In this document: positions 1 through 25,558 of the stretch, piece by piece
Layout: every line of letters starts with the position of its first letter
How positions within the stretch are numbered: the first letter of the stretch is position 1
Assembly (NCBI GenBank): GCA_900234795.1
Contig: LT962688.1
Span: 2,130,001-2,162,000, forward strand
DNA: 32,000 nucleotides
From: Methylorubrum extorquens
GTDB lineage: Bacteria; Pseudomonadota; Alphaproteobacteria; Rhizobiales; Beijerinckiaceae
Direction: 5' to 3'
Translations under genes and position numbers: made by a program
The notes under the pieces: model-generated
Database searches by the model: none
The model's input: only the letters and a program-made list of their open reading frames with translations
What the model was told of the DNA's origin: nothing

Positions 1-2142
<2,142 letters not shown>

Positions 2143-2273
2143 TCACCGGCTTGCAACGGACGTGCCGGCCAAGAGCCTGTCCAACTGTCCGTCACGGCGG
2201 GGCACGGACATCCCTAACGCCCGCTGCTCACGGAATCGAGAGCGGTACGCTACGGTCCGGTCTGCCGGGCGGA

Positions 2274-2293
2274 CATACGCAAAACAGCGTATG
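2274..2293. promoter_or_regulatory. Perfect inverted repeat CATACGC-N6-GCGTATG in the divergent kinase/urtA intergenic region; candidate operator.
   Basis: Read directly: catacgc (2274-2280), aaaaca, gcgtatg (2287-2293). It lies about 100 nt upstream of the urtA ATG. Confidence 0.3.
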
Positions 2294-2389
2294 GGTGCGC
2301 CGCATCATCAAGCCTAGCCTTCCCCTCGTTCGAGCACGGCCGCCGACCGGCAGAGCCGTGCCGAGACGAGATACAGGGGTTGAGGCACG

Positions 2390-3643
2390 ATGGCGGACGA
2401 CAAGAAGGGCCTGGACTCGGCCCTGCGGCGCAAGCTTCTCATGGGTCTCGCGGGGCTTCCCGCGCTGGCGATGATGCCGCGGATGGCGTTCGCCGCCGCA
2501 CCGACCTCGGCCGTCAACACGACCGGGCTCGCGGTGACCGACACGGAAGTCACGGTCGGCATCCTGCACTCGGCGACCGGCACCATGGCGATCTCCGAGA
2601 CCGGCTCGATCCAGGCCGAGAAGCTCGCGATCGCCCAGATCAACGAGATGGGCGGCGTGCTCGGCCGCAAGATCAAGGTGATCCAGGAGGACGGCGCCTC
2701 CGACTGGCCGACCTTCGCCGAGAAGGCCAAGAAGCTCCTCGTCAACGACCATTGCGCCGCGGTGATGGGCTGTTGGACCTCCGCCTCGCGCAAAGCCGCG
2801 CTGCCGGTCTTCGAGCAATATAACGGTCTGCTCTACTACCCGACCTTCTACGAGGGCCTGGAGCAGTCCAAGAACGTGATCTACACCGGCCAGGAGGCGA
2901 CGCAGCAGATCCTCGCCTCGCTCGACTGGGTCGCCAAGGAGAAGGGCGCCAAGTCGTTCTTCATGGTCGGCTCGGATTACATCTGGCCGCGCACCTCGAA
3001 CAAGATCGCCCGCAAGCATATCGAGAACGTGCTCAAGGGCACGGTCGCCGGCGAGGAATACTTCCCCCTCGGCCACACGCAGTTCAACTCGGTCATCAAC
3101 AAGATCAAGCTCAAGAAGCCGGACGTGATCTTCGCCGACGTGGTCGGCGGCTCGAACGTCGCCTTCTACAAGCAGCTCAAGGCGGCCGGTATCGACCTCA
3201 ACAAGCAGACCCTGCTGACGATCTCGGTCACCGAGGACGAGATCGACGGCATCGGCGGCGACAATATCGCCGGCGCCTATTCCTGCATGAAGTACTTCCA
3301 ATCACTGAAGAACCCGAACAACGAGAAGTTCGTCGCCGCCTTCAAGAAGATGTGGGGCGACAAGACCGTCATCGGCGACGTGACCCAGGCCGCCTATCTC
3401 GGCCCGTTCCTGTGGAAGATGGCGGTGGAGAAGGCCGGCTCCTTCGATGTCGACAAGGTCGCCGCGGCGTCCGCCGACATCGAGTTCAAGGAGGCGCCGG
3501 AAGGCTACGTGAAGGTCCACCCGAACCATCACCTCTGGTCGAAGACCCGCGTCGCCAAGGCCCTGCCGAGCGGCCAGTTCGAGGTGGTCTACGAGAGCCC
3601 CGAGCTGATCGAGCCGAACCCCTTCCCGAAGGGCTACCAGTAG
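2390..3643 (+). CDS. urtA: Urea/short-chain amide ABC transporter periplasmic binding protein (UrtA/FmdD family, PBP type I) with a Tat-type signal peptide.
   Basis: 417 aa ORF. The N-terminus LRRKLLMGLAGLPALAMMPRMAFAAA has a twin-arginine plus AxA site. VGILHSATGTMAISETGS..GCWTSASRKAALPVFE..LLYYPTFYEG matches my memory of UrtA/FmdD/AmiC-like binding proteins. It is the first gene of a urtBCDE-like set. Confidence 0.88.
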   Translation: MADDKKGLDSALRRKLLMGLAGLPALAMMPRMAFAAAPTSAVNTTGLAVTDTEVTVGILHSATGTMAISETGSIQAEKLAIAQINEMGGVLGRKIKVIQEDGASDWPTFAEKAKKLLVNDHCAAVMGCWTSASRKAALPVFEQYNGLLYYPTFYEGLEQSKNVIYTGQEATQQILASLDWVAKEKGAKSFFMVGSDYIWPRTSNKIARKHIENVLKGTVAGEEYFPLGHTQFNSVINKIKLKKPDVIFADVVGGSNVAFYKQLKAAGIDLNKQTLLTISVTEDEIDGIGGDNIAGAYSCMKYFQSLKNPNNEKFVAAFKKMWGDKTVIGDVTQAAYLGPFLWKMAVEKAGSFDVDKVAAASADIEFKEAPEGYVKVHPNHHLWSKTRVAKALPSGQFEVVYESPELIEPNPFPKGYQ

Positions 3644-3657
3644 TCGCGGACACTCCG

Positions 3658-3681
3658 GTCCCCTCCCTCGCGGGAGGGGAC
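3658..3681 (+). promoter_or_regulatory. Perfect 10-bp stem/4-nt loop hairpin just after the binding-protein gene; intercistronic attenuator or mRNA-stabilising element.
   Basis: gtcccctccc tcgc gggaggggac, 15 nt after the urtA stop. No T-tract follows. The next gene starts at 3753. Confidence 0.55.
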
Positions 3682-3752
3682 ACCCGCGATATGACGGGCG
3701 TGGCCCGACACTTGCTGCGCTCTCCCAGAAAATTCCGCCGGAGTCACAAGCC

Positions 3753-4679
3753 ATGTTCGGCGACTATTCGCTCGCAGACCTCAGCTCGATCTTCGTGATG
3801 CAGGGCTTTGCAGGTCTGATCCTGTTTTCCGTCTACGTGCTGATGGCGTTGGGTCTGGCGATCATCTTCGGCCAGATGGGCGTCATCAACATGGCCCACG
3901 GCGAGTTCATGATCCTGGGTGCCTACGTCACCTATCTCTGCTCAACTTTCTTCCAGACCTACCTGCCCTCGCTGTTCGGCGCGTATTTCTTCGTCGCCAT
4001 GGCATTGGCCTTCCTGGCCTCGGGAGCGATGGGGATGCTGGTGGAATGGGCGCTGATCCGCCACCTCTACAAGCGCCCGCTCGACACCTTGCTCGCGACC
4101 TGGGGCCTCTCGCTGATCCTGCAGCAGGCCTACCGCACGATCTTCGGCCCGCGCGAGGTCGGTGTCGAACTGCCCTCGTGGATGATGGGCTCGATCCCCG
4201 TCACCGATTCCATCGAGGTGCAGATCAACGGCCTGTTCGTGATCGCGGTCACCGCCGTCATCACCGTGGGCGTCGCGGTGCTGATGTACCGCTCGCGCTT
4301 CGGTGCGCAGATCCGCGCGGTGATGAGCAACCGCCCGATGGCGGGTGCCGTCGGCATCGATACCGAGAAGGTCGATCGCACCACCTTCGGCCTCGGCTGC
4401 GGCATCGCCGGCATTGCCGGCTCGGCCTTCACGATGATCGGCTCCACCGGGCCGACCTCGGGCCAGCTCTACATCGTCGACACCTTCCTGATCGTGGTCT
4501 TCGGCGGCGCGGCGAGCCTGCTCGGCACCATCGCCTCGGCCTTCTCGATTTCGCAGACCCAATCCACCCTCGAATTCTTCCTCTCCGGCTCGATGGCCAA
4601 GGTGCTCACCCTGCTCGCGGTGGTGGGAATCCTGATGCTGCGGCCGCAGGGCCTGTTCACCCTCAAGGTCCGTCGCTGA
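3753..4679 (+). CDS. urtB: Urea/amide ABC transporter permease (UrtB-like, LivH family).
   Basis: 308 aa, multi-TM, LivH-like (..INMAHGEFMILGAY..). GGAG lies 9 nt upstream of the ATG. Position in the operon supports the call. Confidence 0.88.
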   Translation: MFGDYSLADLSSIFVMQGFAGLILFSVYVLMALGLAIIFGQMGVINMAHGEFMILGAYVTYLCSTFFQTYLPSLFGAYFFVAMALAFLASGAMGMLVEWALIRHLYKRPLDTLLATWGLSLILQQAYRTIFGPREVGVELPSWMMGSIPVTDSIEVQINGLFVIAVTAVITVGVAVLMYRSRFGAQIRAVMSNRPMAGAVGIDTEKVDRTTFGLGCGIAGIAGSAFTMIGSTGPTSGQLYIVDTFLIVVFGGAASLLGTIASAFSISQTQSTLEFFLSGSMAKVLTLLAVVGILMLRPQGLFTLKVRR

Positions 4680-4692
4680 GGAGCGCGCCCCG

Positions 4693-5870
4693 ATGACGAA
4701 CCAGAAGACAAGTCCCATGCAGTCCCTGTCGAAGGCGGTTACCGTCAACGACAACCCCTTCATGAAGCCGGTCGAGTGGGTCAGCCTCGCGCTGCTGGCC
4801 GGCGTGATCCTGGTGGTCCTGCCGCTCGTGCTCGACGGCTTCCGCCTCAACCTCGTCGGCAAGTATCTCACCTACGCCTTCGTCGCCCTCGGCCTCGTCA
4901 TCTGCTGGGGCTATGCCGGCATCCTCTCGCTCGGCCAGGGCGTGTTCTTCGGCCTCGGCGGCTACTGCATGGCGATGTACTTGAAGCTGGAGGCTTCGAG
5001 CGTCGAAAATACGAAAATCCAGTCAACGCCGGGCATTCCCGACTTCATGGACTGGAACCAGATCACGGAGCTTCCGTGGTTCTGGCACCCGTTCCAGAGT
5101 CTGCCGCTGACGCTGCTCCTCGTCGTCGCGGTGCCGGTGGCCTTCGCCTTCCTCATCTCGGTGGCGATGTTCAAGCGCCGCGTCGGCGGCACCTACTTCG
5201 CCATCATCACCCAGGCCATCGCCGCGATCCTGACGATCCTGATCGTTGGCCAGCAGGGCTACACCGGCGGCATCAACGGCATCACCGATCTGCGCACCCT
5301 CCACGGCTGGGACATCCGCCAGGATAGCGCGAAGTTCGTCCTCTACTTCGTCAATGGCGGCCTGCTGATCGGCTGCATCCTGATGGCGCAGTACGTGAAG
5401 AAGTCGAAGCTCGGCCGCATCCTCGTCGCCATGCGCGAAAAGGAGGACCGGGTCCGGTTCTCGGGCTACTCGGTGGCGGGCTTCAAGGTGTTCGCCTACT
5501 GCCTCGCGGCGGCCTTCGCGGCGATCGGCGGGGCGATGTTCACCCTCCAGGTCGGGTTCATGTCGCCCTCCTTCGTCGGCATCGTGCCCTCGGTCGAGAT
5601 GGTGATCTACACCGCGGTCGGCGGGCGCCTCTCGCTCTTCGGCGCAGTCTGGGGGACGCTGCTGGTCAACTGGGCCAAGACGAGCTTCTCCGAATCCTTC
5701 CCCGACCTCTGGCTGTTCGGCCTCGGCGGCCTGTTCATCGCCGTGGTGCTGATCTTCCCCAACGGTCTCGCCGGCATCTGGCGCGAGCACATCGAACCCC
5801 GCCTGTTCCGCAAGGCCAAAGGTCTGGCGCCCGTCGCCGGCCCCGCCCTGCCCCACGGCACCCCGGCCGA

Positions 5871-5874
<4 letters not shown>
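4693..5874 (+). CDS. urtC: Urea/amide ABC transporter permease (UrtC-like, LivM family).
   Basis: 393 aa, multi-TM, LivM-like (..GILSLGQGVFFGLGGY..). GAGGAG lies upstream of the ATG. It follows urtB after 13 nt. Confidence 0.88.
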
Positions 5875-6674
<800 letters not shown>

Positions 6675-6687
6675 GGGCGAACGGATC

Positions 6688-7434
6688 ATGCTCCAGACTT
6701 CCCCCTTCCCGCTCGTGCCGCCGGTCGTGCCCGGCACCCAAGCCATGCTGTCGATCTCCGACCTCCACTCGGCTTACGGCCAGAGCGAGGTGCTGCACGG
6801 CATCGACCTCGACGTCGCACCGGGCGAGATCGTCGCCGTGATGGGCCGTAACGGCATGGGCAAGTCGACGCTCATGAAGACGCTGATGGGTATCGTGCCG
6901 ACCAAGTCCGGCACGATCACCGTGGACGGCACCGACGTCACCAGCCTGAAGAGCCATGCCCGCGTGGCCAAGGGGCTGGCCTACGTGCCGCAGGGCCGGA
7001 TGATCTTCTCCACCATGACGGTGCAGGAGAACATCGAGACGGGCCTCACCGTCACCGGTTCGCGCAAGGTGCCGCAGGATCTCTACACGATGTTCCCGGT
7101 GCTGCTGGAGATGAAGGGCCGGCGCGGCGGCAACCTGTCGGGCGGCCAGCAGCAGCAGCTCGCCATCGCCCGGGCGCTCGCCAGCAAGCCGAAGGTTCTG
7201 CTTCTCGACGAGCCGACCGAGGGTATTCAACCCTCGATTATTCGCGAAATGGGGCGTACGCTGAAGAAGATTCGCGACGAGCGCGGTCTGTCGATCGTCG
7301 TCTCGGAGCAAGTGCTGAGCTTTGCCATGGACGTGGCCGACCGGGTTCTCGTGATCGAGAACGGCTCGATCGTCCACGAGAGTCTGCGTGCCGACATCGA
7401 CGAGGCGCAGGTCGCCCGCTTCCTCTCGGTCTGA
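6688..7434 (+). CDS. urtE: Urea/amide ABC transporter ATP-binding protein (UrtE-like, LivF family).
   Basis: Walker A GRNGMGKST, signature LSGGQQQQLAIARAL, Walker B LLLDEP. An alternative start at the ATG at 6745 (MLSISDL..) would give the usual ~230 aa length. Confidence 0.88.
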   Translation: MLQTSPFPLVPPVVPGTQAMLSISDLHSAYGQSEVLHGIDLDVAPGEIVAVMGRNGMGKSTLMKTLMGIVPTKSGTITVDGTDVTSLKSHARVAKGLAYVPQGRMIFSTMTVQENIETGLTVTGSRKVPQDLYTMFPVLLEMKGRRGGNLSGGQQQQLAIARALASKPKVLLLDEPTEGIQPSIIREMGRTLKKIRDERGLSIVVSEQVLSFAMDVADRVLVIENGSIVHESLRADIDEAQVARFLSV

Positions 7435-7445
7435 GGATCTTCGCG

Positions 7446-8462
7446 ATGGCCGATTACGAGATCTTCGAGCTCGGCGACATCGTCCTGCAGTCGAAGCAGA
7501 CGATCCGTGGGGCGCGGCTCGCCTACAAGACCTACGGCACGCTCAACGCCGCGAAGGACAACGTCATCGTCTATCCCTGCTGGTATTCCGGCACGCATCT
7601 GGAGAACGAGTGGCTGATCGGGCCGGGCAAGGCGCTCGATCCGGACCGGTACTTCATCATCGTGCCGAACATGTTCGGCAACGGATTGTCGTCCTCGCCG
7701 AGCAACACGCCGGTACCCTTCAACGGGCCGCGCTTTCCCAAGGTCACGGCCTACGACAACGTGGTGCAGCAGCACCGGCTGGTGACGGAGGTCTTCGGCA
7801 TCGAGCGGATCAAGCTCGTCACCGGCTGGTCGATGGGCGCGCTCCAGACCTTCCACTGGGGCGCGATCTTCCCGGACATGGTCGAGCGCATCCTGCCGTT
7901 CCAGGGCTCGGCCAAGTGCTCGCGGCACAACTTCGTCTTCCTGGAGGGCGTCAAGGCGGCACTCCAGGCTGACGCCGCCTTTGCCGATGGGTTCTACGCC
8001 GAACAGCCGCAGAAGGGCCTGCGCGCCGCCGCCCGGGTCTATGCCGGCTGGGGCTTCTCGCAGACCTTCTACCGGGTCGAGGCCGACCTGAAGCAGATGG
8101 GCTACGCCTCGCTCGAAGACTTCCTCGTCGGCTTCTGGGAAGGCTGGCTGCTCGAAAAGGATGCCAACAACCTGCTCGCCATGCTCTGGACTTGGCAGAA
8201 CGGCGACATCTCCGCCAACGACCTCTACGGCGGTGATCTCAAGAAGGCGCTCGGCGCGATCAAGGCCAAAGCCTTCGTGATGCCGGCCTCGACCGACCTG
8301 TATTTCCCACCCGAAGACAGCGCTATCGAGGTCGAGCACATGCCGAACGCGGAGCTGCGCACGGTCGAGACCTATTGGGGCCACTTCGCCGGCGGCCCCG
8401 GTACCTCGCCCGAAGACATCAAGGTGCTGGACGCGGCGCTGAAGGAGCTGCTCGCCAGCTGA
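7446..8462 (+). CDS. Alpha/beta-fold hydrolase/acyltransferase of the MetX (homoserine O-acetyltransferase)-like family.
   Basis: 338 aa. The nucleophile elbow GWSMG lies in VTGWSMGALQTFHW. The N-terminal ..ARLAYKTYGTLNAAKDNVIVYPCWYSGTH.. resembles MetX-type proteins. GAGGA lies 8 nt upstream of the ATG. Confidence 0.7.
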   Translation: MADYEIFELGDIVLQSKQTIRGARLAYKTYGTLNAAKDNVIVYPCWYSGTHLENEWLIGPGKALDPDRYFIIVPNMFGNGLSSSPSNTPVPFNGPRFPKVTAYDNVVQQHRLVTEVFGIERIKLVTGWSMGALQTFHWGAIFPDMVERILPFQGSAKCSRHNFVFLEGVKAALQADAAFADGFYAEQPQKGLRAAARVYAGWGFSQTFYRVEADLKQMGYASLEDFLVGFWEGWLLEKDANNLLAMLWTWQNGDISANDLYGGDLKKALGAIKAKAFVMPASTDLYFPPEDSAIEVEHMPNAELRTVETYWGHFAGGPGTSPEDIKVLDAALKELLAS

Positions 8463-8625
8463 ACCACCAGCGGGGCGCCCCGGCGACCCGCCCGAACCGA
8501 TCCGGTGCCGACCCGCGCCGGATGAACGAAGAACGACAACAACGATCCACGGGGGCGGCCGGACCAGCACCGGACACGCAACGGGGACGGCTGCCAAAAA
8601 TCCGGACAGTAAAGGAGTAAAGGAA

Positions 8626-9857
8626 ATGCCCGAGACCCTGATCAAGGTCGATCTCACGCAGTCGGCCTACGACAACGACATGGTGCACAACCGCTGGCAC
8701 CCGGACATCCCGATGGTCGCGACCGTGAAGCCCGGCGACGACTTCATCGTCGAGACCTATGACTGGACCGGCGGCTTCATCAAGAACAACGATTCCGCCG
8801 ACGACGTGCGCGACATCGATCTGTCGATCGTGCACTTCCTGTCCGGCCCGATCGGCGTCGAGGGTGCCGAGCCCGGCGACCTGCTCGTGGTCGATCTGCT
8901 CGATATCGGCGCCAAGCCCGAGAGCCAGTGGGGCTTCAACGGCTTCTTCTCGAAGAACAATGGCGGCGGCTTTCTCGACGAGCACTTCCCCCCAGGCCCA
9001 GAAGTCGATCTGGGATTTCGAGGGCATGTTCACCAAGTCGCGCCACGTGCCCGGCGTGCGCTTCCCCGGCCTGATCCATCCCGGCCTGATCGGCTGTCTG
9101 CCCGATCCGAAGATGCTGGAGACCTGGAACACCCGCGAGAAGGCGCTCTACGACACCAACCCGAGCCGGGTGCCGGCGCTGGCCACCCTCCCCTTCGGCC
9201 CGACCGCGCATATGGGCCGGTTGAAGGGTGACGCGAAGGACAACGCCGCAGCCACGGGCGCCCGCACGGTGCCGGGACGTGAGCATGGCGGCAATTGCGA
9301 CATCAAGGATCTGTCGCGCGGCTCGAAAATCTACTTCCCCCGTCTACGTTCCCGGCGCCGGCCTCTCGATGGGCGACCTGCATTTCAGCCAGGGCGACGG
9401 TGAGATCACCTTCTGCGGCGCCATCGAGATGGCGGGCTGGGTCCACCTCAAGGTCAGCCTGATCAAGGACGGCATGGCCAAGTACGGGATCAAGAACCCG
9501 ATCTTCAAGCCGTCGCCGATCACCCCGAAATACGACGATCACCTGATCTTCGAGGGTGTCTCGGTCGACGAGTATGGCAAGCAGCATTACCTCGACGTCA
9601 CGGTCGCCTACCGCCAAGCCTGCCTCAACGCGATCGAGTACCTGAAGAAGTTCGGCTACTCGGGCGCCCAGGCCTACTCGATCCTCGGCACCGCCCCGGT
9701 CCAGGGCCACATCTCCGGCGTCGTCGATATCCCGAACGCCTGCGCCACGCTCTGGATTCCGACCGGCATCTTCGACTTCGACATCAACCCGTCCGAGGCC
9801 GGGCCGACGAAGTTCCTCGACGGCTCGATCCAGATGCCGCTCTCGCCGGATCTCTGA
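8626..9857 (+). pseudogene. fmdA: Formamidase FmdA (acetamidase/formamidase family), interrupted by two +1 frame shifts as the sequence stands.
   Basis: Three consecutive frames each carry collinear FmdA sequence. Frame 1, 8626-~8991: MPETLIKVDL..HNRWHPDIPMVATVKPGDDF..GGGFLDEHFP. Frame 2, ~8993-~9340: QAQKSIWDFEGMFTKSRHVPGVRFPGLIHPGLIGCLP..GGNCDIKDLSRGSKIYFP. Frame 3, 9342-9857: VYVPGAGLSMGDLHFSQGDGEITFCGAIEMAGW..NACATLWIPTGIFDFD. Removing one C from each C-run (8988-8993 and 9337-9341) gives a 409-aa protein, as I recall for Methylophilus FmdA. A strong RBS (AAAGGAG..AAAGGAAATG) is present. Confidence 0.85.
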
Positions 9858-9864
9858 ATCTCTT

Positions 9865-9893
9865 GGTTTGCCGCCCTCTCCGGGCGGCAAACC
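9865..9893 (+). promoter_or_regulatory. Perfect 12-bp stem/5-nt loop hairpin between fmdA and fmdB.
   Basis: ggtttgccgccc tctcc gggcggcaaacc begins 8 nt after the fmdA stop. No T-tract follows. fmdB starts at 9922. Confidence 0.55.
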
Positions 9894-9921
9894 GCACACA
9901 CTTTGCCTGAGAGCGTTTGCG

Positions 9922-10239
9922 ATGCCGGTCTACGATTACGCCTGCGAGAGCTGTGGTCCGTTCACGGTGCTGCGCCCGATGGCGCAGTTCAAGGACCCGC
10001 ATGACTGCCCGGATTGCGGCGGGGAATGCCAGCGCGCCTTCCTCACCGCCCCGCGGATCTCTGGCATGGATGCCGGCCTCAAGGCCGCCCACGCCACCAA
10101 CGAGCGCAGCCGCCACGAGCCGCGGCGCTCCGGTGCCCACGGGGCCGGCTGCGGCTGCTGCTCGCCGAAGAAGACGTCCGCCGCACCCGCGGCGGCCAAG
10201 AGCTTCCCGAACGCGCGGCCCTGGATGATCAGCCACTGA
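9922..10239 (+). CDS. fmdB: FmdB-family zinc-ribbon putative regulatory protein.
   Basis: MPVYDYACESCGPFTVLRPMAQFKDPHDCPDCGGECQRAF is the canonical FmdB CxxC..CxxC ribbon. The track ORF begins at 9868, but the family N-terminus is MPVYDY (ATG 9922). The gene sits right after fmdA, as in the Methylophilus fmd cluster. Confidence 0.85.
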   Translation: MPVYDYACESCGPFTVLRPMAQFKDPHDCPDCGGECQRAFLTAPRISGMDAGLKAAHATNERSRHEPRRSGAHGAGCGCCSPKKTSAAPAAAKSFPNARPWMISH

Positions 10240-10405
10240 TCGAACGGCCGTCTCGGCGGCGGGCGCCCGGTGTGCCCGTCGCTCAACATCCGGAAGGATG
10301 GATCGAACCGAAGAACAGCTCCGCGAGGGAGCCGCCGGCCGCGACACGACAAGCGGGACGAACCCTGTGGGCAGGCCGGCGCAGAGGACGGGTTGGGGAC
10401 TGACG

Positions 10406-11866
10406 ATGCTTGAGCGAATGACACAGACACGGGCCAGACGCCGCCGCGGCGTGAGAATCGGAACGGCCGGAGCCCTGCTGGCGGCAAGCCTGACCACGGC
10501 GACCGGCGTCTCCGCGCAGCAACCCTCGCCGGTGGGTCAGTTCAACGATCAGACCCAGCCGCGCACCGATCCGCGCATCGCCGAGAAACCCAGCGATCCC
10601 GTCCGCGTCGGCCCGCTGGCGCCCTGGGCCACCCACATGGCCGAGCGCGGGCTCACCTTCGACATCAACATCTACAACTTCTACCAAGCCAATCCCTCGG
10701 CCGGCCTGCGCACCGGAGAGCAGTCGAACTCGACCTATTTCGTCCTCTCCATGACCGCCGACATGCAGCGCATCGCCAACATCAGTGGCGGCACCATCAA
10801 GTTCACGCAGACTTTCTTCGGCAACGTCCGCAACCTCAACATGGCCGCCGATATCGGCGACACCACGGTCGGCTACCAGCCGCCGTTCAACCCCAACAAC
10901 AACCGCCTGTCGCTGCTCACCTACCAGCAGAAGTTGCTCGACGACCGCCTCGTCATCGAAGTCGGCCGCACCCACCCCGATCGCTACTACGGCCTGCCGC
11001 CGTGCAACTCGATCAATTCCTGCTTCCAGGACCTGTTCTACATCAACGCCGGCTTCACCTCGCCGCTCTACGCGGTCTGGGGCGCGAACGCCGCCTACCA
11101 GCTCTCGCCCACGAGCTACGTCCAGGCCGGCGCCTTCTCGGTGAACCCCGGCACCAACGCATTGTCGGGCTACGATTTCGGCTACGAGCGGCTCTCGGGC
11201 GCGCTGGTGATGACCGAGATCGGCACCAAGACCGACTACACCATGACCGCCTATCCCGGCCGCGCTTCGCTCACCGGCTTCTTCAACACGGCCGATCACG
11301 ACGACAACTTCAAGACAGTGTTCGGCACCTCGAAGGGCCTGAACCCCGGCGCCCCGGTGCTGCAGAAGTCGGGCACGTCCGGCATCGTGCTCACCGGCAC
11401 GCAGACGGTCTGGCGCGCCGATGGTGGCCTCGTCGCCAACCCGCACCCGACGGCGATCTCGCTCTATACCGGCACGGGCTATTCGTTCGATCCGACGGTG
11501 CCGATCCGCTTCAACTCGTTCGTCGGCGTACGCCTCGACGCGCCCGACCAGAGCCGGCCCAACGACAGCTACGGGCTGAAGATGAACTGGCAGCGTTTGT
11601 CGGAGAACTACACGCAGTTCCTGTCTGACGCGAACTTCATCTCGGGCGGCTCGGGCGCCCCGTATTCGCGCGACAAGTTCGTGTTCGAGGCCAACGCGCA
11701 CTTCGACGTCGGCGCGGGCGTGATCATCGAGCCGGTGGTTCAGTACGTGGTCAACCCGAACACGTTCTGGAACCCCTTCACCGCGCGGCGCGCCAAGGAC
11801 GGCTTCTACGCCGGCGCAACGCTGGTCGTCCCGCTCGGCACCCTGCTCGGCCTCGCTCCGGGCTAG
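10406..11866 (+). CDS. Outer-membrane porin, OprB (carbohydrate-selective porin)-like; positional counterpart of the amide/urea porin FmdC.
   Basis: Signal peptide MLERMTQTRARRRRGVRIGTAGALLAASLTTATGVSA/QQ from the ATG at 10406 (track ORF starts at 10298). The composition is beta-barrel-like, with alternating aromatic/Gly/Asn-rich strands, and ..ERGLTFDINIYNFYQAN..GGTIKFTQTFFG is OprB-like. Family assignment is from memory, not a search. Confidence 0.7.
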   Translation: MLERMTQTRARRRRGVRIGTAGALLAASLTTATGVSAQQPSPVGQFNDQTQPRTDPRIAEKPSDPVRVGPLAPWATHMAERGLTFDINIYNFYQANPSAGLRTGEQSNSTYFVLSMTADMQRIANISGGTIKFTQTFFGNVRNLNMAADIGDTTVGYQPPFNPNNNRLSLLTYQQKLLDDRLVIEVGRTHPDRYYGLPPCNSINSCFQDLFYINAGFTSPLYAVWGANAAYQLSPTSYVQAGAFSVNPGTNALSGYDFGYERLSGALVMTEIGTKTDYTMTAYPGRASLTGFFNTADHDDNFKTVFGTSKGLNPGAPVLQKSGTSGIVLTGTQTVWRADGGLVANPHPTAISLYTGTGYSFDPTVPIRFNSFVGVRLDAPDQSRPNDSYGLKMNWQRLSENYTQFLSDANFISGGSGAPYSRDKFVFEANAHFDVGAGVIIEPVVQYVVNPNTFWNPFTARRAKDGFYAGATLVVPLGTLLGLAPG

Positions 11867-11941
11867 CCCTTTTTCCGAGCCAAGAAAGGGGGGCTCGCGC
11901 GACGGGCCCCTCCCCTCAAACCAACCGGAGGAAACACCGCC

Positions 11942-12994
11942 ATGATGCACGGTGATATCTCGTCGAGTCAGGACAGCGTCGGCGTCGCCGTCGTGAACTA
12001 CAAGATGCCCCGGCTGCACACCAAGGCCGAGGTGCTGGAAAACGCCAAGAAGATCGGCGACATGATCATCGGGATGAAGGCCGGTCTGCCGGGCCTCGAT
12101 CTCGTGATCTTCCCCGAATACTCGACCCACGGCATCATGTACGACGCGGGCGAGATGTACGAGACTGCCTCCTCCATCCCCGGTGCGGAGACTGACATCT
12201 TCGCCGACGCGTGCCGCAAGGCCAAGGTCTGGGGTGTGTTCTCACTCACCGGCGAGCGCCACGAGGAGCATCCGCGCAAAGCCCCCTACAACACGCTCAT
12301 CCTGATGAACGACCAGGGCGAGATCGTGCAGAAGTACCGCAAGATCATGCCCTGGACCCCGATCGAGGGCTGGTATCCCGGAGACCGCACCTACGTCTCG
12401 GATGGCCCGAAGGGCCTCAAGATCAGCCTGATCATCTGCGACGACGGCAACTATCCCGAGATCTGGCGCGACTGCGCGATGCGCGGCGCCGAACTCATCA
12501 TCCGCTGCCAGGGCTACATGTATCCGGCCAAGGAACAGCAGGTTCTGATCTCGAAGGCGATGGCATTCGCCAACAATACCTACGTCGCGGTGGCCAACGC
12601 CGCCGGCTTCGACGGCGTCTACAGCTATTTCGGTCACTCGGCGATCATCGGCTTCGACGGCCGGACGCTGGGCGAGTGCGGCGAGGAGGAGATGGGCATC
12701 CAGTACGCCGCACTCTCGAAGTTCCTGATCCGCGATTTCCGCGCCCACGGCCAGTCGGAGAACCACCTCTTCAAGCTGCTGCACCGCGGCTACACCGGCA
12801 TGATCAACTCGAAGGAGAACCGGCACGGGATGTCGGAATGCCCCTACGACTTCTACCGTCGCTGGATCGAGGACCCCGACGGCACCCGCGACGCGGTGCG
12901 CGCCATCACCCGCTCCAGCGTCGGCACCGAGGAATGCCCGATCGAGGGCATCCCCTTCGTCGGCAAGGGCGAGGGCCCGCCCGACCCGCGCTGA
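11942..12994 (+). CDS. amiE: Aliphatic amidase (acylamide amidohydrolase, nitrilase superfamily).
   Basis: [109 protein letters not shown] is near-collinear with Pseudomonas aeruginosa AmiE as I remember it, including the catalytic Cys in [15 protein letters not shown] lies 10 nt upstream of the start. Confidence 0.92.
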
Positions 12995-13033
12995 GCTCGG
13001 CTCGGGCCGAAACGCTACGTCATGCGGCCGAGC

Positions 13034-13060
13034 GCCCTCCACCCGGGCCGGATGGAGGGC
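13034..13060 (+). terminator. Putative terminator hairpin after amiE.
   Basis: gccctcca (13034-13041) pairs with tggagggc (13053-13060) around an 11-nt loop, followed by gttctccgtt (only moderately T-rich). It lies 40 nt after the amiE stop, at the end of the plus-strand gene array. Confidence 0.4.
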
Positions 13061-13085
13061 GTTCTCCGTTGTGCGCATGCGGGAA

Positions 13086-13192
13086 GTTTGTCGGTGATCT
13101 CCCGCCTAACTCGTTGACTTCAGTGACCGGAATTTTTGGCGAAGGAGCGTGGAAGGAGCGTGTTTGTCGGCGGGGAGTGCGATGTTTGTCGG
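13086..13192. repeat. Short direct repeats in a non-coding gap: GTTTGTCGG three times, and a tandem 11-mer GAAGGAGCGTG twice.
   Basis: gtttgtcgg at 13086-13094, 13162-13170 and 13184-13192. gaaggagcgtg at 13141-13151 and 13152-13162. Confidence 0.6.
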
Positions 13193-13542
13193 TTTGCGAA
13201 TGCCGGCCCGTCCCGTCGTGCCGGCTAGGAACGACGCCCACGCCAGTGGAGTAACCGGATGGGATGAGCCTGCCGTATGACTACAGGCGTCGGATCGGTG
13301 GCGGCTGGCACCTCGGCACAGCCATCGCGGTACCAAATGGCGATACCCTCATCGTCAACATTGAGCGCTGCCGCACGAGACATCTTCGCGCGCACGGCCT
13401 GCCTCGTCGTCATCACAATGGCTGACACGGAGCGTTTGCCGAAGATTGCCTTCGCACGATCCGGAGGCGCAGCAGCAACGCTGCTCGGAATCGCTTTGCC
13501 GGAAACAGAGCTTGCCCCGACCATCCTCGCCGCAGCTGCCCC

Positions 13543-14952
13543 TCACGGCTCTGTAAGCGGACGAAGATTATAGCCCGGCGGCTTCGTCCGTTCGATCGCC
13601 GCGGCCGTTCGTATGACGTCCGCCTCGCCGAGCGCGCGGCCCACGATCTGAAGCCCGACCGGCATTCCGTCCGAGGCAATTCCCGCGCAGACGGAGGCCG
13701 CGGGCTGGCCCGTGAGGTTGAAGGGGTAGGTGTAGAAGGCCCAGGAGACGAGACTGCGATCTTCCAGTCCCTCCGGGATGTTCCTGCCTGCTTCCAAGGA
13801 CGAGATCGGCAGTGTCGGTGACACGAGGACATCGTAGCCGGTGAAGAAGCTGACCATCCGGTCCCGCAGCGCGTACCGCGCGAAGACGGTCTCGTAGTAG
13901 GCGCGCATCTCCTGAGCGAGGGCGGCGTCGAGCACATCGGCGACGGCGGGGTCCAGGAGATCGCGGCGGCTTTCGAGAACGCCGCGCAGGCGGGTGCCGA
14001 TGCCGGCGTAGAACTCGGCTGTCCAGAGAGCGGCTGGATCGGACTCGAAGACGGTCTCGACCTCTTCCACGATCGCGCCCTGGTCGGCCAGCGTCATCGC
14101 CGCAGCACGGGCGATGGCGGCGACCTCCGGGTTGGGCCGCGCATAGCCGAGCGTCGCGCTCCAGGCGACCCGCAGGCCGGCGACGGAAGCCTTGACCGCG
14201 CCCAAAAGGTCCGGGACGGGCCCGGCCACCGCGAAGGGATCGCGCGGATCGTGGCCGGCGACCGCCATCGTCAGCAAGGCGGCGTCGGCGACGTCGCGAG
14301 CAAGCGCGCCGACATGGGCCAGCGTCGGTGTTGCCGAGGTCGGCCAGACCGGAACCCGCCCGAATTGCGCCTTGAGCCCGACGAGACCCGTCAGCGCTGC
14401 GGGAATGCGCAGGGAGCCGCCACCGTCGGTGCCGAGTGCGAAGGGCGTGATCCCGGCTGCCACCGAGGCGGCCGCGCCGGCGCTCGATCCGCCCGGTGTC
14501 TTCGCCAGATCCCAGGGATGGCGGGTGATGCCGGTGAGCGGCGAGTCGCCGACGGGCTTGGCTCCGAACTCGCTCGTGGTGGTCTTCCCGATGATGATGG
14601 CGCCGGCGGCACGCAGGCGCTCGACGGCGGGGGCATCGGCGGCGGCGACATTGCTCGCCATGGCCCGCGAGCCGGACGCGTAGGGCTGGCCGCCCACCGC
14701 GATCAGATCCTTCACCGAGACCGGCAGGCCGTGGAGCAGCCCGAGGGGCGAGCCGCACATCACAGCCTCCTCGGCCCGGCGCGCGGCGCTGCGGGCCTCC
14801 TCCGGCATCAGGTGGCAGAAGGCATTCAAGGAGGCTTGGCTCGCCTCGGCGCGCGCGAGGGCGTGCTCCGTCAGCTCGACCGGCGAAATCGCGCGCGCCG
14901 CGATCAGGCGGCGCAGCTCAAGCGCGGTCATGAAGTCGAAGTCGCTCGTCAT
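13543..14952 (-). CDS. Amidase-signature (AS) family amidase (GatA-like).
   Basis: MTSDFDFMTALELRRLIAARAISPVELTE..GLLHGLPVSVKDLI..GKTTTSEFG..PGGSSAGAAASVAAG..GTDGGGSLRIPAA shows the Lys/cis-Ser/Ser signature. The start is chosen at the ATG at 14952 (GGAG upstream); the track ORF extends to 15132 through an implausible Arg/Gly-rich leader. Confidence 0.88.
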   Translation of the reverse strand: MTSDFDFMTALELRRLIAARAISPVELTEHALARAEASQASLNAFCHLMPEEARSAARRAEEAVMCGSPLGLLHGLPVSVKDLIAVGGQPYASGSRAMASNVAAADAPAVERLRAAGAIIIGKTTTSEFGAKPVGDSPLTGITRHPWDLAKTPGGSSAGAAASVAAGITPFALGTDGGGSLRIPAALTGLVGLKAQFGRVPVWPTSATPTLAHVGALARDVADAALLTMAVAGHDPRDPFAVAGPVPDLLGAVKASVAGLRVAWSATLGYARPNPEVAAIARAAAMTLADQGAIVEEVETVFESDPAALWTAEFYAGIGTRLRGVLESRRDLLDPAVADVLDAALAQEMRAYYETVFARYALRDRMVSFFTGYDVLVSPTLPISSLEAGRNIPEGLEDRSLVSWAFYTYPFNLTGQPAASVCAGIASDGMPVGLQIVGRALGEADVIRTAAAIERTKPPGYNLRPLTEP

Positions 14953-15005
14953 CGCTCCACTCTCTGCAAGGGAGGCGCGGCGCCCGAGGGGGCGCCGCAA
15001 TGGCG

Positions 15006-15707
15006 TCAGTCGTTGACGAGGGCGAACGCGCGGACCGGCGAGCCGGAACCGCCCTTGAACTTCAGCGGCACGCCGAAGAACTGCACCTCGCCCTTGCCCA
15101 GAAGCTCCTCCAGGTTCACCAGCCATTCCCAATGGCTGATGCCCAGTTCACGGCAGAGGCGGTGCTGAGCGAAGATGTTGTCGCTCGGCTTATCGGTGGA
15201 GGGCCCCTCGACACCGTGCATCTTCGAGCCGCGCTCATGCAGCCACTGGGTGGCCTCCACGGTCAGCAGCGGGTTCTTCCACACCGAGTCGAGGCTCGGA
15301 TAGTTGCGCGCGTGGAAGCCGGTGCAGAGCAGGACGATGTGGCCGTCGACTTTGACGCCGCTCTTGGCTTGCGCCTCCTCCATGTCGGCGACCGTGATGT
15401 CGCCCAGGTCGGGGATGTGACGCAGGTCGAAGCAGACCGCCTTGCCCATGAACAGCTCCAGCGGCATCTCGTCGACGGGCTGGCCGTTCGGATCGACATG
15501 CCGGAAGGCGTCCACATGGGTGCCGACGTGGTCGAGCATCGCGATGAAGTTCGTCTGGAAGGTCATCGCATCGCCCGGCACGCCGAGATTGAGGCCGGCC
15601 GAACTCTCGTGACTGAGATGCGTGGTGATCACCGGCCGCTGGAAGAGCTTGTGGGCCGGCATGTTGTCCTCGATCAGGAGGCTCAAATCGACGACGCGCT
15701 GGGGCAT
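15006..15707 (-). CDS. Cyclase-family protein (kynurenine formamidase KynB-like metal-dependent amidohydrolase).
   Basis: 233 aa with HVGTHVDAFRH, the HxGTHxDxxxH motif of the putative-cyclase/arylformamidase family. AAAGGA RBS. Confidence 0.75.
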   Translation of the reverse strand: MPQRVVDLSLLIEDNMPAHKLFQRPVITTHLSHESSAGLNLGVPGDAMTFQTNFIAMLDHVGTHVDAFRHVDPNGQPVDEMPLELFMGKAVCFDLRHIPDLGDITVADMEEAQAKSGVKVDGHIVLLCTGFHARNYPSLDSVWKNPLLTVEATQWLHERGSKMHGVEGPSTDKPSDNIFAQHRLCRELGISHWEWLVNLEELLGKGEVQFFGVPLKFKGGSGSPVRAFALVND

Positions 15708-15738
15708 GGCGGGTCCTTTTCGGGCGTGATGGATCGTT

Positions 15739-15760
15739 CACGGCACCGTCCGGTGCCGTG
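15739..15760 (-). promoter_or_regulatory. Perfect 9-bp stem/4-nt loop hairpin between the livF-like and cyclase genes.
   Basis: cacggcacc gtcc ggtgccgtg in the 81-nt intercistronic gap (15708-15788). No U-tract on the transcribed strand. Confidence 0.5.
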
Positions 15761-15788
15761 CCGTTTCGGGTTCGGCGGGATGCCGCTC

Positions 15789-16526
15789 TCAGGCGGCTTT
15801 CTTCTTGCCGAGAAAGGTCTCCATGACCTCCGGGTCGCGGGCGATGAGCCCGCTCGGGCCGTCCCGCACCGTGCGCCCCTGCGCCACCACGTAGGCGTGG
15901 TCGGCGATGGCGAGCGCGTAGGATGCGAGCTGCTCGACGAGAAGAATGGTGAGGCCTTGGCCGTTGAGATCGCGCAAGACGCCAATGAGTTGCTCAACGA
16001 CGCGGGGCGCGAGGCCAAGCGAGAGTTCGTCGATCACGAGGAGGTCGGGTTCGGCCATCAGACCACGGGCGATGGCGAGCATCTGCTGCTCGCCGCCCGA
16101 CATGCTGCCGGCCGGCTGGCGCAGCCGCTCGCGCAAGCGCGGGAACAGCGCGAGCGCCCGCTCCAGCGTCCGTTTCGCCTGCGCGGTCTTGAGGCCGCCA
16201 TGGGTGTAGGCACCCAGTATCAGATTGTCCTCGACGGTTTGGTCGGGGAAGATCAGGCGTCCCTCGGGCACCATCGCGAGACCGCGGGCGACCTTGGCAT
16301 GGGCGGGCAGCCGGGTGACCTCCTCGCCCTTGAACAGGACGCGGCCGCCGCTCGGTCGTACGAGGCCGGTGATCCCGCGCATCAGCGAGGTCTTGCCGGC
16401 ACCGTTATTGCCGATCACGGCGACCAGCTGACCGCGTTGCACGGTCAGGTTCGCACCGCGGAGCGCGGTTGCCGCGCCGTAGCGGACTTCGAGGTTCTCG
16501 ACCGAGAGAAGCGGAGTATCGGTCAT
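15789..16526 (-). CDS. Branched-chain-amino-acid-type ABC transporter ATP-binding protein (LivF-like).
   Basis: MTDTPLLSVENLEVRYGAATALRGANLTVQRGQLVAVIGNNGAGKTSL..MSGGEQQMLAIARGL..LLVIDELSLGLAP (245 aa). This is the C-terminal part of track ORF 15789..17924, whose upstream part is out-of-frame shadow. Its ATG overlaps the stop of the preceding gene (TGATG). Confidence 0.88.
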   Translation of the reverse strand: MTDTPLLSVENLEVRYGAATALRGANLTVQRGQLVAVIGNNGAGKTSLMRGITGLVRPSGGRVLFKGEEVTRLPAHAKVARGLAMVPEGRLIFPDQTVEDNLILGAYTHGGLKTAQAKRTLERALALFPRLRERLRQPAGSMSGGEQQMLAIARGLMAEPDLLVIDELSLGLAPRVVEQLIGVLRDLNGQGLTILLVEQLASYALAIADHAYVVAQGRTVRDGPSGLIARDPEVMETFLGKKKAA

Positions 16527-18307
16527 CAGGCGGCCTCCTCGTTGAGGATGGCGGACGGGCCGCCGAAATAGGCCTCGATCACCCGCGGATCGGCTTGCAC
16601 CGTCTCCGGACGGTCGCTCGCGATGACCTGCCCGTAATCGAGCACCGTCACGGTATCGGCAACCGCCATGATCAGGTCGACGTGATGCTCGATGAGCAGC
16701 ACCGAGACACCGAGTCCCGCGATCTTCCGGATCATGGCCTCCAGTTCGTCGATCTCCTGCGTGGTGAGCCCGGCGGCGGGCTCGTCGAGAAGCAGAAGAC
16801 GCGGACGCGTGGCGAGGGCCCGGGCAATCTCCAGCCGGCGCTGATGGCCGAAGGGCAGGAAGCGGGCCTGCTCGTTGGCCACCGCGCTGAGCCCGACGAA
16901 ATCGAGCAGGCCGATTGCGGCGGCGCGGCAGGCGGCCTCCTCGCGGCGGAAGCGGGGCGTGCGCAGGATCGCCCCGGGCAGGCCGTAGCCGTGATGGGCG
17001 AAGCCGCCCACCATGACATTCTCCAGAACCGTCATCTGTCCGAACAGCTCGGTGTTCTGGAAGGTGCGGGCAAGACCGAGCCGCGCAATGCCGTGAACCT
17101 TGATGCCGGCGAGATCGGTCCCGTCGAGGTGCACGCCACCCTCGCTCGGGCGGTAGAACCCCGAGATCGTGTTCACGAAGGTCGACTTGCCGGCTCCGTT
17201 CGGGCCGATCAGAGCGTGGATCTCGCCCGGGGCGACCCGAACGCTCGCAGCGCTCAGCGCCGTGAGCCCGCCGAAGCGAACGGTGAGGCTGTGGGTCTCC
17301 AGGCCGGCAGGCTTGCGACCCGCGAGAAGCTCGGCGGCGGGCATGCCTTGACCCGGCTCGACCCCACGCGGGCCGGGGCGCAGACGGGCGTAGAGTTGGC
17401 CCAGCGTACCTAGGATGCCGCCGGGCAGGCCGAACATCACCGCCAGCAGCAGGGCGCCGTAGGCGAATTTCTGCCACTCGGCAAAGCGCTGCAGCACTTC
17501 CGGCAGATAGGTCAGGATGAAGGCGCCGACGACCGGCCCGAAGGTTGAGGCCGCTCCTCCCAGGATCACCATCAGCAGGAAGCGGACGGAATCCGAGAAG
17601 GTGAAAATGTCGGGCGAGATATAGGCGTTGAGGAAGGCGTAGAAGCTGCCCGCGATCCCTGCCGTCATGGCCGCGACCGCGAAGGCGAGCGTGCGGATCC
17701 CCGTCGCGCCGATGCCGAGGCTGCGCGCGGCCGTCTCGCTCTGGGCGACAGCCAGCATCGCGCGGCCGTAGCCCGAGTGCTTCAGGTTGTGCGTCGCCAG
17801 GGTCGCGAGAAAAAGGGTGATGGCGAGCACGGCGTAGAAGGCGTAGCCGGAGAGCGGATATCCGAAGAGGTTCGGGCCGGGGATGCCGCTGAGTCCCGTC
17901 GTGCCGCCGGTGAGGCTCTGCCACTCGATGGCAACGTTCTCGACAATGAGGCCGAAGGCGATCGTCACCACCGCGAGATAGACGCCCCGCACCCGCACGC
18001 TCGGATAGGCCAGCGCCGCGCCGAAAAGGCCGGCCACCACCGCCGCGCCGATGCTTGCGAGAACGAGGTCGAGGTTGAACCGGATCGCCAGGATCGCGCC
18101 GGTATAGGCGCCAAGCGCGAACAGTCCGGCTTGGCCGAGAGAGACGAGGCCGGTGAGTCCGACGAGGACATTCAGGCCGACCGCGATCACGCCGTAGATC
18201 AGGAACAGCATGAACAAGCGCAGTTCGTACTCGTTGCCGGAGGTGAGCGGCACGACAACGAGGATGGCTGCGAGCAGCGCGAAGCCGAGGGTGTAGAGGG
18301 CCTTCAT
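16526..18307 (-). CDS. Fused ABC transporter permease (LivM-like) and ATP-binding (LivG-like) protein.
   Basis: 593 aa. The N-terminal ~330 aa are multi-TM (..GLVSLGQAGLFALGAY..). The C-terminal part carries GPNGAGKSTF, FGHQRRLEIARAL and LLLLDEPAAGL. Confidence 0.88.
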   Translation of the reverse strand: MKALYTLGFALLAAILVVVPLTSGNEYELRLFMLFLIYGVIAVGLNVLVGLTGLVSLGQAGLFALGAYTGAILAIRFNLDLVLASIGAAVVAGLFGAALAYPSVRVRGVYLAVVTIAFGLIVENVAIEWQSLTGGTTGLSGIPGPNLFGYPLSGYAFYAVLAITLFLATLATHNLKHSGYGRAMLAVAQSETAARSLGIGATGIRTLAFAVAAMTAGIAGSFYAFLNAYISPDIFTFSDSVRFLLMVILGGAASTFGPVVGAFILTYLPEVLQRFAEWQKFAYGALLLAVMFGLPGGILGTLGQLYARLRPGPRGVEPGQGMPAAELLAGRKPAGLETHSLTVRFGGLTALSAASVRVAPGEIHALIGPNGAGKSTFVNTISGFYRPSEGGVHLDGTDLAGIKVHGIARLGLARTFQNTELFGQMTVLENVMVGGFAHHGYGLPGAILRTPRFRREEAACRAAAIGLLDFVGLSAVANEQARFLPFGHQRRLEIARALATRPRLLLLDEPAAGLTTQEIDELEAMIRKIAGLGVSVLLIEHHVDLIMAVADTVTVLDYGQVIASDRPETVQADPRVIEAYFGGPSAILNEEAA

Positions 18308-19179
18308 ACCTTGAAGATCTCCCGGCGGCCGAACAGACCCTGAGGGAAGGCGACGAGGACGAGGATCATCGCACTGAAGCCGACGATCTCCCGCGCCGCG
18401 GTCGAAACGTAGCCCTCGACGAACTTCTCCATGACCCCGAAGGCGAGGCCGGCCAGGACGACGCCGGGGCCACTGGTGATTCCGCCGATGATGGCGACCG
18501 CGAAGCCCTTGAGCCCGAGGAGGACGCCCATGCTGGCGGAAGCCTGGATCACGGGGGCGACGAGCACGCCTGCCCCTGCGCCGAACAGTGCCGCGAGTCC
18601 GAAGGAGAACATCACGATCCGGTCGACGTTGATGCCCATCAGGGCAGCCGCTTGGCGGTTATGGGCGACTGCCTGCATCGCTCTCCCGACGAGCGTATGC
18701 CGTTGCATCGCGTGGAGACCGGCCATCGCAAGCAGTGCGACGGCTGGGATGACGAGTTCCTGCGGATAGACGCCCGCTCCAAGGATCGAGATCGCTCCTG
18801 CAACGCCGGGCGAGGGAAGCGGGCGCGAGAAGCCGCCGAACTGCATCGTGGCAAGGGATTCAGCCATGATGCCGACTGCGATCGTGGTCAGCATCCAGCC
18901 GATCGAGGCGTTGGTGCCGATGAAAGGCCGCACCGCGAAACGCTCCAGCACAACGCCGAACAAGGCCCCGGCCAGGATTGCGAGGAGGCAGGCCAGCGGC
19001 AGCGGCAAGCCGGCATCGATGCCCATCACGGCGAGGACTGCGCCGATCATCAGCGTGTCGCCGTGGGCGAAGTTCACGGCCTTGGCGGCCGACCACATGA
19101 TGTGGAAGCCGAGTGCGACGAGGGCGTAGATGCCCCCGATTGCGAGGCCTGAGAGCGTATATTGCAGGGCGGTCGTCAT
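18304..19179 (-). CDS. ABC transporter permease (LivH-like).
   Basis: 291 aa multi-TM, ..AVNFAHGDTLMIGAV.. The stop overlaps the next start (ATGA). Confidence 0.88.
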   Translation of the reverse strand: MTTALQYTLSGLAIGGIYALVALGFHIMWSAAKAVNFAHGDTLMIGAVLAVMGIDAGLPLPLACLLAILAGALFGVVLERFAVRPFIGTNASIGWMLTTIAVGIMAESLATMQFGGFSRPLPSPGVAGAISILGAGVYPQELVIPAVALLAMAGLHAMQRHTLVGRAMQAVAHNRQAAALMGINVDRIVMFSFGLAALFGAGAGVLVAPVIQASASMGVLLGLKGFAVAIIGGITSGPGVVLAGLAFGVMEKFVEGYVSTAAREIVGFSAMILVLVAFPQGLFGRREIFKV

Positions 19180-19305
19180 GGCTGCCGCGAGAGTTCCCTG
19201 TGTGAAGCGGACAGGCGTTCAGCGGAGTTGGGGCGACCCGGCGATCGGGATCCGAACGAGCCGCCCCGGCCCCACCGTTCGAAGACGGAGGGGACGCTTC
19301 TGCCG

Positions 19306-20499: not shown

Positions 20500-20624
20500 G
20501 CGTTGGGCTCCGATTCCCTGATGATGCTCGGGTTCAGCCGCGATGTTCAAGCGATGACCGTCAGGCTACGCAACGAATACATCAGGCATCAAAGACCAAT
20601 TTCCGATGTGAGCCATTGGAATTA

Positions 20625-20645
20625 CCTATGAGCTTCGTTCATAGG
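20625..20645. promoter_or_regulatory. Candidate LysR-type binding site (dyad CCTATGA-N7-TCATAGG containing T-N11-A) in the divergent promoter region.
   Basis: cctatga gcttcgt tcatagg. The inner TGAGCTTCGTTCA fits T-N11-A. It lies in the only AT-rich stretch (20551-20801), between the binding-protein gene and the LysR gene. Confidence 0.4.
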
Positions 20646-20801
20646 CGAGGCTTGGCGAGGCGCTTCCCAGCTAACTCCATGTTTTTGCATTAGAAATCTA
20701 TATTTGATGCACATAGTTTGCGCAGATTGCTCGGCGTTAGAGCAGTTTGACATGGGCGTGGAGTTCCGCGCCTTTTCACAAATTCCCCGGATAGGATTGC
20801 C

Positions 20802-21764: not shown

Positions 21765-21984
21765 AATGCGGCCCAACCCTCTTCAGTGCGAGCTAAGGCG
21801 CACCTGTGCAGTGCTGTATGCCTCGGCCAACAGCTGCGCTCCGCAACGAGGCCGACGGGTGCGGCGAAATTCAGGGTTCTTTGTCGAGCCACAATCATCC
21901 CAATGTCTGCTGCACGACATTGAGCAGCCCTTCGTCATCAGGCGCACGCATGACCGCTTCGGTTGCGCAGCGGGATTTGGACGA

Positions 21985-22330
21985 TCACGCGACGAATGTC
22001 TGGGTCGAGAGCCGACCGTCGGTCGGGCTGTCCACCCCAAGGACGCCGCACGGCTGACCCTCGCCCTGAATCAGTAGGTTGATGGCCCGCCCGATCCCGT
22101 GCTCGCGGAGGACGTCCGGCGTGCGGATGCGGGTTTCGTCCTCAAGATGGTTGGAGATGACCGGCTCGCCGGTTTGGAACGCGGACCCGGTCGGGCTCTC
22201 CCTATCCGCCCCGGTCCGGGCGTGCCCGACGGCGCCGTGTTTCCAGCCGACCCCGGCCCGCACAATGAACTGTCCCTCGTCGGGGAGGTACGATGCAGAC
22301 AACGCCGCGTGACGCGGGTGGCATGCGCCG
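21985..22330 (-). pseudogene. Remnant of a GAF-domain sensor (HWE/HisKA_2 kinase-type) gene; only the C-terminal part of the GAF domain remains.
   Basis: The minus frame reads ..YLPDEGQFIVRAGVGWKHGAVGHARTGADRESPTGSAFQTGEPVISNHLEDETRIRTPDVLREHGIGRAINLLIQGEGQPCGVLGVDSP.., the GAF pattern I associate with rhizobial HWE kinases. I could not find a kinase H-box in any frame downstream (21765-21985). Upstream, the frame runs antisense into the receiver gene. The 5' limit is approximate. Confidence 0.45.
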
Positions 22331-25513: not shown

Positions 25514-25558
25514 GGGCACGCGCCATCAGCGAACACCGAAGGCCAGGAACTCGCCGAC

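Follow-up and report, generated by a model that had tools for sequence, protein, structure and literature searches.

Is the formamidase gene of the Methylorubrum extorquens type strain broken, and if so, by what? The 32,000-nucleotide stretch of DNA analysed here (the window) is almost certainly part of the chromosome of strain TK 0001, LT962688, which is the complete genome of the type strain (TK 0001 = DSM 1337) and serves as a mapping reference. Within it, an FmdA-like translation runs in frame 1 from position 8626, crosses frame 2 (...SPQAQKSIWDF...IYFP) and continues in frame 3 to a stop codon at 9857, both frame switches being +1. An earlier account of the locus made from the letters of the DNA (the sequence-only reading) had described this collinearity across three frames, had traced the switches to a six-C run at 8988-8993 and a five-C run at 9337-9341, and had offered three explanations without settling on one: a sequencing or assembly artefact, very recent inactivation of fmdA, or slippage-prone sites that are read through. 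Its description is borne out. Both runs have these lengths in the deposited sequence, and the two switches are visible both in the translation and in a GC3 frame plot, where no other comparable mid-gene switch appears between positions 1 and 13000. The gene starts at an ATG (8626) preceded, as had also been pointed out, by a strong ribosome-binding site, here of the AAGGAG type. On the interpretation argued for below, its features are as follows.

8626-9857, + strand: fmdA (formamidase), deposited with two extra C that are very probably spurious; the true gene would be 1230 nt long and encode 409 aa.
8988-8993, + strand: six-C run whose true length is very probably five, giving the first spurious +1 shift; context ACTTCCCCC[C]AGG, sequence reads cacTTCCCCCCagg.
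9337-9341, + strand: five-C run whose true length is very probably four, giving the second spurious +1 shift; context ACTTCCCC[C]GTC, sequence reads tacTTCCCCCgtc.

Removal of one C at each site yields a gene of 1230 nt and a 409-aa FmdA, the expected length, as the sequence-only reading had proposed. This repaired protein scores 757 bits against the NCBIfam model NF045496 'formamidase' (profile positions 2-406 of 407), an FmdA equivalog with a curated cut-off of 500 bits, 605 bits against Pfam PF03069 (positions 1-373 of 373) and 778 bits over residues 1-408 against PDB entry 2wkn, 'formamidase'. It is thus a full-length member of the acetamidase/formamidase family, above the curated cut-off and alike from end to end. 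Formamide-hydrolysing activity is predicted from the equivalog-level match and the name of the 2wkn entry. There is no biological difference from the FmdA family; the deposited sequence alone departs from it, by two extra C. The 201-aa and 214-aa fragments that result from the split each have a single exact counterpart, SOR28936.1 and SOR28937.1 of M. extorquens, in a set of about 15 billion proteins, and are already stored in UniProt as separate proteins. A gene-index lookup for the 201-aa fragment, which bears on other assemblies alone, returned no gene on record in any other assembly.

The gene lies in a cluster of the typical fmd type, consisting of an ABC transporter, a hydrolase, fmdA, fmdB, a porin and amiE. 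The transporter genes are described here by the Pfam families of the genes called in syntenic loci.

2390-7434, + strand: binding-protein-dependent ABC transporter, upstream of fmdA.
2390-3643, + strand: periplasmic binding protein of the ABC transporter (Peripla_BP_6).
3753-4679 and 4693-5874, + strand: two ABC permeases (BPD_transp_2 twice).
5886-6674 and 6688-7434, + strand: two ABC ATPases (ABC_tran twice).
7446-8462, + strand: alpha/beta hydrolase, immediately 5' of fmdA (NF005757, 573 bits; PF00561).
9922-10239, + strand: fmdB-type zinc-ribbon protein (NF053663, 144 bits; TIGR02605 FmdB family).
10406-11866, + strand: OprB-family porin in the position of an FmdC-like porin (PF04966 OprB; a 486-aa product is called in relatives).
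11942-12994, + strand: amiE, intact aliphatic amidase (NF009802, 720 bits, full length).

The fmd cluster of Methylophilus methylotrophus brings fmdA together with an fmdB zinc-ribbon gene, an OprB-type porin and an ABC transporter, and the M. extorquens cluster resembles it in all of these components. By analogy with that cluster, and from its adjacency to fmdA, the transporter encoded at 2390-7434 may take amides or urea as its substrate. The intact amiE that had been placed about 2 kb downstream of fmdA is indeed there. The fmdB-type protein ends in ...RPWMISH and matches over its full length the recent NCBIfam model for an 'RPWMISH domain-containing protein', NF053663. An amidase gene, TK0001_v2_2341, is annotated at 2143543-2144952 of the TK 0001 genome (tables of PMC6595629), from which the window is located at 2,130,001-2,162,000 of that genome.

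fmdA in relatives and in public sequencing runs

We compared the repaired gene with its orthologues at two levels. A species scan with one genome per species gave 80 loci at 80-99% protein identity, and in all 80 fmdA is uninterrupted, with at most five C at the first site, where the protein reads HFP[QLSEHYA]AQ, and at most four C at the second, where it reads [YF]FPVYV. The scan gave no M. extorquens match, which suggests that the collection searched represents this species by LT962688 itself. In each of ten other M. extorquens genomes, which include AM1 (CP001510) and DM4 (FP103042), a 409-aa FmdA is called and the runs hold exactly five and four C. The alignment with close relatives that the sequence-only reading had proposed therefore finds 90 of 90 genomes intact, with the extra base in 0/80 species and 0/10 conspecific genomes, and the +1 shift sites are not conserved in the orthologues. 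Its statement that the gene carries no other lesion also stands: the repaired FmdA is 100% identical in amino acid sequence to that of nine of the ten conspecific genomes, AM1 and DM4 among them, and at the nucleotide level fmdA differs from CP021054.1 by a single synonymous change. The alignment with CP021054.1 extends over about 29 kb and contains no indels other than the two extra C and an 11-bp intergenic duplication. Since all relatives are intact and the repaired gene has no further lesion, the fmdA lesions are private to the LT962688 genome and the aligned sequences give no sign of decay. GCA_007989205.1 (BJVP01) was considered as an independent assembly of the type strain and rejected; at 98.2% identity to the window it represents a different strain.

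Sequence of apparently the same strain was found in Logan assemblies of public sequencing runs, retrieved by lineage-specific proteins. For the fmdA region this was the alpha/beta hydrolase at 7446-8462, whose exact protein occurs only in CP021054.1 and in 13 Logan contigs. Four of the 13 run assemblies reached by this handle (contigs L113-L116, from runs ERR2849807, ERR2849815, ERR2849801 and ERR3763904, spanning 3446-10582) were compared base by base, and nine more have the same gene content. The contigs carry window-only alleles and are therefore taken to come from the same strain: 10062 T is common to L113, L114 and L116 (L115 stops short of this position), and 13378 A together with the 11-bp duplication, found in no other strain, is common to L104, L105 and L107. 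Over 11837-26278 and 28701-32000 the window is matched at 100.000% identity by further contigs (ERR2831553, ERR2849811, ERR2849805, ERR2831467, ERR2849814, ERR3763904 and others). The porin (486 aa) was also used as a strain-specific handle and proved to be carried by CP021054.1 only; it finds no Logan contig, since every one of them is interrupted within this gene.

In the 24,879 nt covered by same-strain contigs, a comparison that also took in the sibling contigs L109, L111, L115 and L128-L133, there are three discrepancies with the window, located at 6707, 8988-8993 and 9337-9341. L113-L116 have C at 6707, where the window has T, five C at the first fmdA site and four C at the second. An uninterrupted fmdA frame, absent from the deposited window, is thus present in short-read contigs of the same strain, and gene calling gives an intact 409-aa FmdA for L113, L114 and L116; L115 is truncated by the end of the contig, beyond both sites. 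A single run, ERR3763904, provided both the intact-fmdA contig L116 and L129, which is 100% identical to the window elsewhere. The link between the runs at issue (ERR28498xx, ERR2831xxx and ERR3763904) and TK 0001 is drawn from sequence identity, the private alleles and the existence of Genoscope deposits, as opposed to run metadata, and some of the public runs may be RNA-seq or evolved derivatives and not the reference clone. The deposits PRJEB27428, PRJEB29054 and PRJEB29055, from the same laboratory, comprise genomic sequencing by MiSeq and RNA-seq by HiSeq for TK 0001 and strains derived from it (PMC6595629).

Same-strain short-read contigs that lack both extra C and encode an intact FmdA argue that the split gene is an error of sequencing or assembly, not biology. 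We put the probability that both +1 shifts are errors in the deposited TK 0001 consensus, and that the organism's fmdA is intact and encodes 409 aa, at about 95%. Five and four C on resequencing was the outcome that the sequence-only reading had named as making the gene intact, and this is what the short-read contigs, apparently of the same strain, contain. Among its three explanations the artefact is accordingly the one that stands; the shifts could not be confirmed in the organism itself, very recent inactivation is effectively excluded by the same contigs, and so is read-through at slippage-prone sites, which are absent both from these contigs and from the 90 relatives.

A sequence context shared by the discrepancies

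The third discrepancy lies outside fmdA, in the second ABC ATPase gene.

6707, + strand: probable third consensus error, T for the expected C; context ACTTCCCCCT[T/C]CCCG.

With T at 6707, codon 7 of the ATPase gene (6688-7434) reads TTC (Phe) and not TCC (Ser), and all 15 of the other loci spanning this position have C, the same-strain contigs L113-L116 among them. The 248-aa ATPase product had no exact match in the gene index, which is informative because its residue 7 is the one affected. The context at 6707 is the same as at both fmdA shifts (ACTTCCCCC, ACTTCCCC), which suggests that the T is probably a third consensus error.

All three discrepancies fall 4-10 nt past the start of an ACTTCCCC 8-mer. 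The 8-mer occurs four times in the window against 0.69 expected, and in the covered sequence its only three sites are the three discrepancy sites. The same covered sequence contains 133 G/C runs of at least four, of which 19 are at least five; the probability that three random run errors would land on exactly the three ACTTCCCC sites is about 2.6e-6, and the roughly 130 other covered G/C runs show no error against the same-strain contigs. This concentration points to a systematic, k-mer-specific consensus error and not to independent mutations, and the identical local context on which the sequence-only reading had laid weight does matter, the 8-mer being enriched and the third discrepancy sharing it. 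The effect of the context is not absolute, since the fourth ACTTCCCC site, at 3060, has no error relative to CP021054.1. At four other CTTCCCC sites, where the preceding base is C, G or T, the window and the same-strain contigs do not differ.

A uniform homopolymer error was considered and rejected: 16 of 16 other covered G/C runs of at least five agree with the same-strain contigs, and the 14 other such runs within 1-15887 agree with CP021054.1. From these comparisons, the error is context-specific, not a general homopolymer error.

The history of the assembly is consistent with this picture. The TK 0001 genome was built from MinION reads by Canu correction and smartdenovo assembly and was polished with 134x MiSeq data (PMC5824006), and a +1 change in a C-run is a type of lesion that fits a MinION-based assembly. 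Residual errors of early (2017) short-read-polished nanopore assemblies are alike, with single-base errors in the length of C-runs and a shifted boundary in a C/T tract, and the TK 0001 assembly shares with them its MinION basis, its contradiction by short-read contigs and its many 'fragment of' CDS. Similar errors also seem to occur elsewhere. Besides 6707, which lies in the ACTTCCCC context, 138 of the 3,447 rows in the TK0001_v2 gene and expression tables are 'fragment of' CDS (supplement of PMC6595629). These include yagS and modA, and the EF-Tu gene tufB is split in two abutting parts, at 3492452-3493114 and 3493114-3493644 (same tables, PMC6595629). Indirectly, the 138 rows suggest many false frameshifts across the whole TK 0001 assembly. 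In the supplements of PMC6595629, neither fmdA, formamidase nor the coordinates of the gene are listed, and PMC11665112 makes no mention of re-sequencing or frameshifts.

In two respects the TK 0001 errors differ from what such assemblies generally show. They are tied to ACTTCCCC (three of three covered sites, and none of the roughly 130 other G/C runs), and they survived 134x Illumina polishing, which would normally clear such indels; the latter counts against an artefact. In the sequence of events that we propose, a C5 run and a C4 run would each have become one C longer in the consensus and the C/T boundary at 6707 would have shifted, in dependence on an ACTTCCCC context just upstream, and polishing would then have left the errors in place. 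Candidates for the step that generated them are nanopore miscalling of the C/T-rich k-mer, possibly aggravated by base modification, or a failure of polishing. It is conceivable, though rather unlikely, that TK 0001 DNA carries a base modification at or overlapping ACTTCCCC or its complement GGGGAAGT which perturbs the nanopore signal; if so, the artefact would point to a methylation motif, or a specificity of restriction-modification, that is uncharacterised in the type strain of M. extorquens. Alternatively, the pattern may simply come from a blind spot in the 2017 pore model or in polishing.

Read as a consensus error, the split fmdA is not a real feature: the gene would be a standard fmdA in a standard fmd cluster, with no new biology in it, and nothing is unusual except the close association of the errors with ACTTCCCC. 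The type-strain reference would be corrected by one C less at each of the two sites and by T -> C at 6707. The assembly probably contains many similar false frameshifts, and split genes in a reference make intact genes look like pseudogenes, raise the number of CDS counted as strain-specific and put wrong proteins into databases. Re-polishing with attention to ACTTCCCC sites would probably mend many genes.

Biological alternatives

If fmdA had been inactivated very recently, the reference clone would carry two true C insertions together with the 6707 missense change, while the cultures behind the public runs would not. C-runs are natural indel hotspots, and after a first frameshift a second in the same gene would be neutral, but three independent mutations in one clone and in one 8-mer context would still be needed (P about 2.6e-6, as above), the assembly method is prone to homopolymer errors, and the genome annotation has many split genes, including EF-Tu. 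The absence of other single-base indels relative to CP021054.1 (about 29 kb) could also be given by purifying selection elsewhere, and the intact amiE downstream might compensate for the loss; fmdA itself, however, has no non-synonymous change. The lesions would moreover have to be missing from 13 run assemblies that carry the lineage-specific hydrolase, of which those checked do not otherwise differ from the window, and a lesion in genomic DNA is not seen in the assemblies of this lineage compared base by base (L113-L116). We consider recent inactivation very unlikely.

Reversible phase variation, in which slipped-strand mispairing at the fmdA C-runs would alter their length and the reference would have been caught in an OFF/OFF state, is more improbable still. 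In its favour, cultures of one strain do differ here in the length of homopolymers. Known contingency tracts are much longer than four to six C, though, and the 90 relatives and the same-strain run assemblies all have the ON lengths, with no variation seen. The third discrepancy, at 6707, is furthermore a substitution and not a change in length.

Programmed or tolerated +1 frameshifting at CCC-C, whereby a P-site tRNA-Pro would slip to the overlapping CCC and full-length FmdA would be made from the sequence as deposited, has a negligible probability: neither the 90 relatives nor the same-strain contigs have its sites, so that there is nothing to recode, and two serial shifts would multiply two low efficiencies. 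The resemblance that recommends it is to programmed +1 frameshifting of the prfB type and by tRNA-Pro at CCC-C, a known +1-prone sequence. Both fmdA sites read TTC CCC C, and +1 re-pairing of tRNA-Pro would restore the native peptide exactly (HFPQAQ, YFPVYV). Unlike programmed sites, those in fmdA are not conserved in relatives, and the likeness is one of sequence only. The 0-frame A-site codons at the two sites are CCA and CGT, neither of them a stop codon, and an Rfam scan of 8000-10500 found no RNA family or other known recoding or regulatory element.

Variation between strains around the cluster

The 11-bp tandem duplication occupies 13141-13162 (GAAGGAGCGTG twice), in the spacer between amiE and a convergent amidase gene. 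Neither CP021054.1 nor LMNP01 nor the other strains have it, and its presence in short-read contigs of the same strain (L104, L105 and L107) indicates that it is a real strain-specific allele.

The porin gene is a second site of variation. Over 15.9 kb the window and CP021054.1 differ by 13 mismatches, nine of which lie in this gene (10645-11575) and leave the 486-aa protein identical, and the allele in contig L104 (ERR2849813) is a different one, with 19 mismatches over 10985-11762. The same-strain contigs all end at 10577-10582 or at 11837. The mismatches and the contig breaks together suggest recombination along this tract, a further copy of the porin gene or a mixture of samples.

Larger differences separate other strains from the window. 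AM1 (CP001510.1) aligns to 1-11094 and 19623-22526 only, with about 1.2 kb of other sequence in place of 11094-19623; the 3' part of the porin gene is missing there, as are amiE, the amidase and cyclase genes and one ABC transporter, all of which are present in TK 0001 and CP021054.1. In the close relative LMNP01000001.1, an IS21-family element (IstB and an rve transposase) is inserted at the position equivalent to about 26205 of the window, where the window has GreA/Rnk-like genes.
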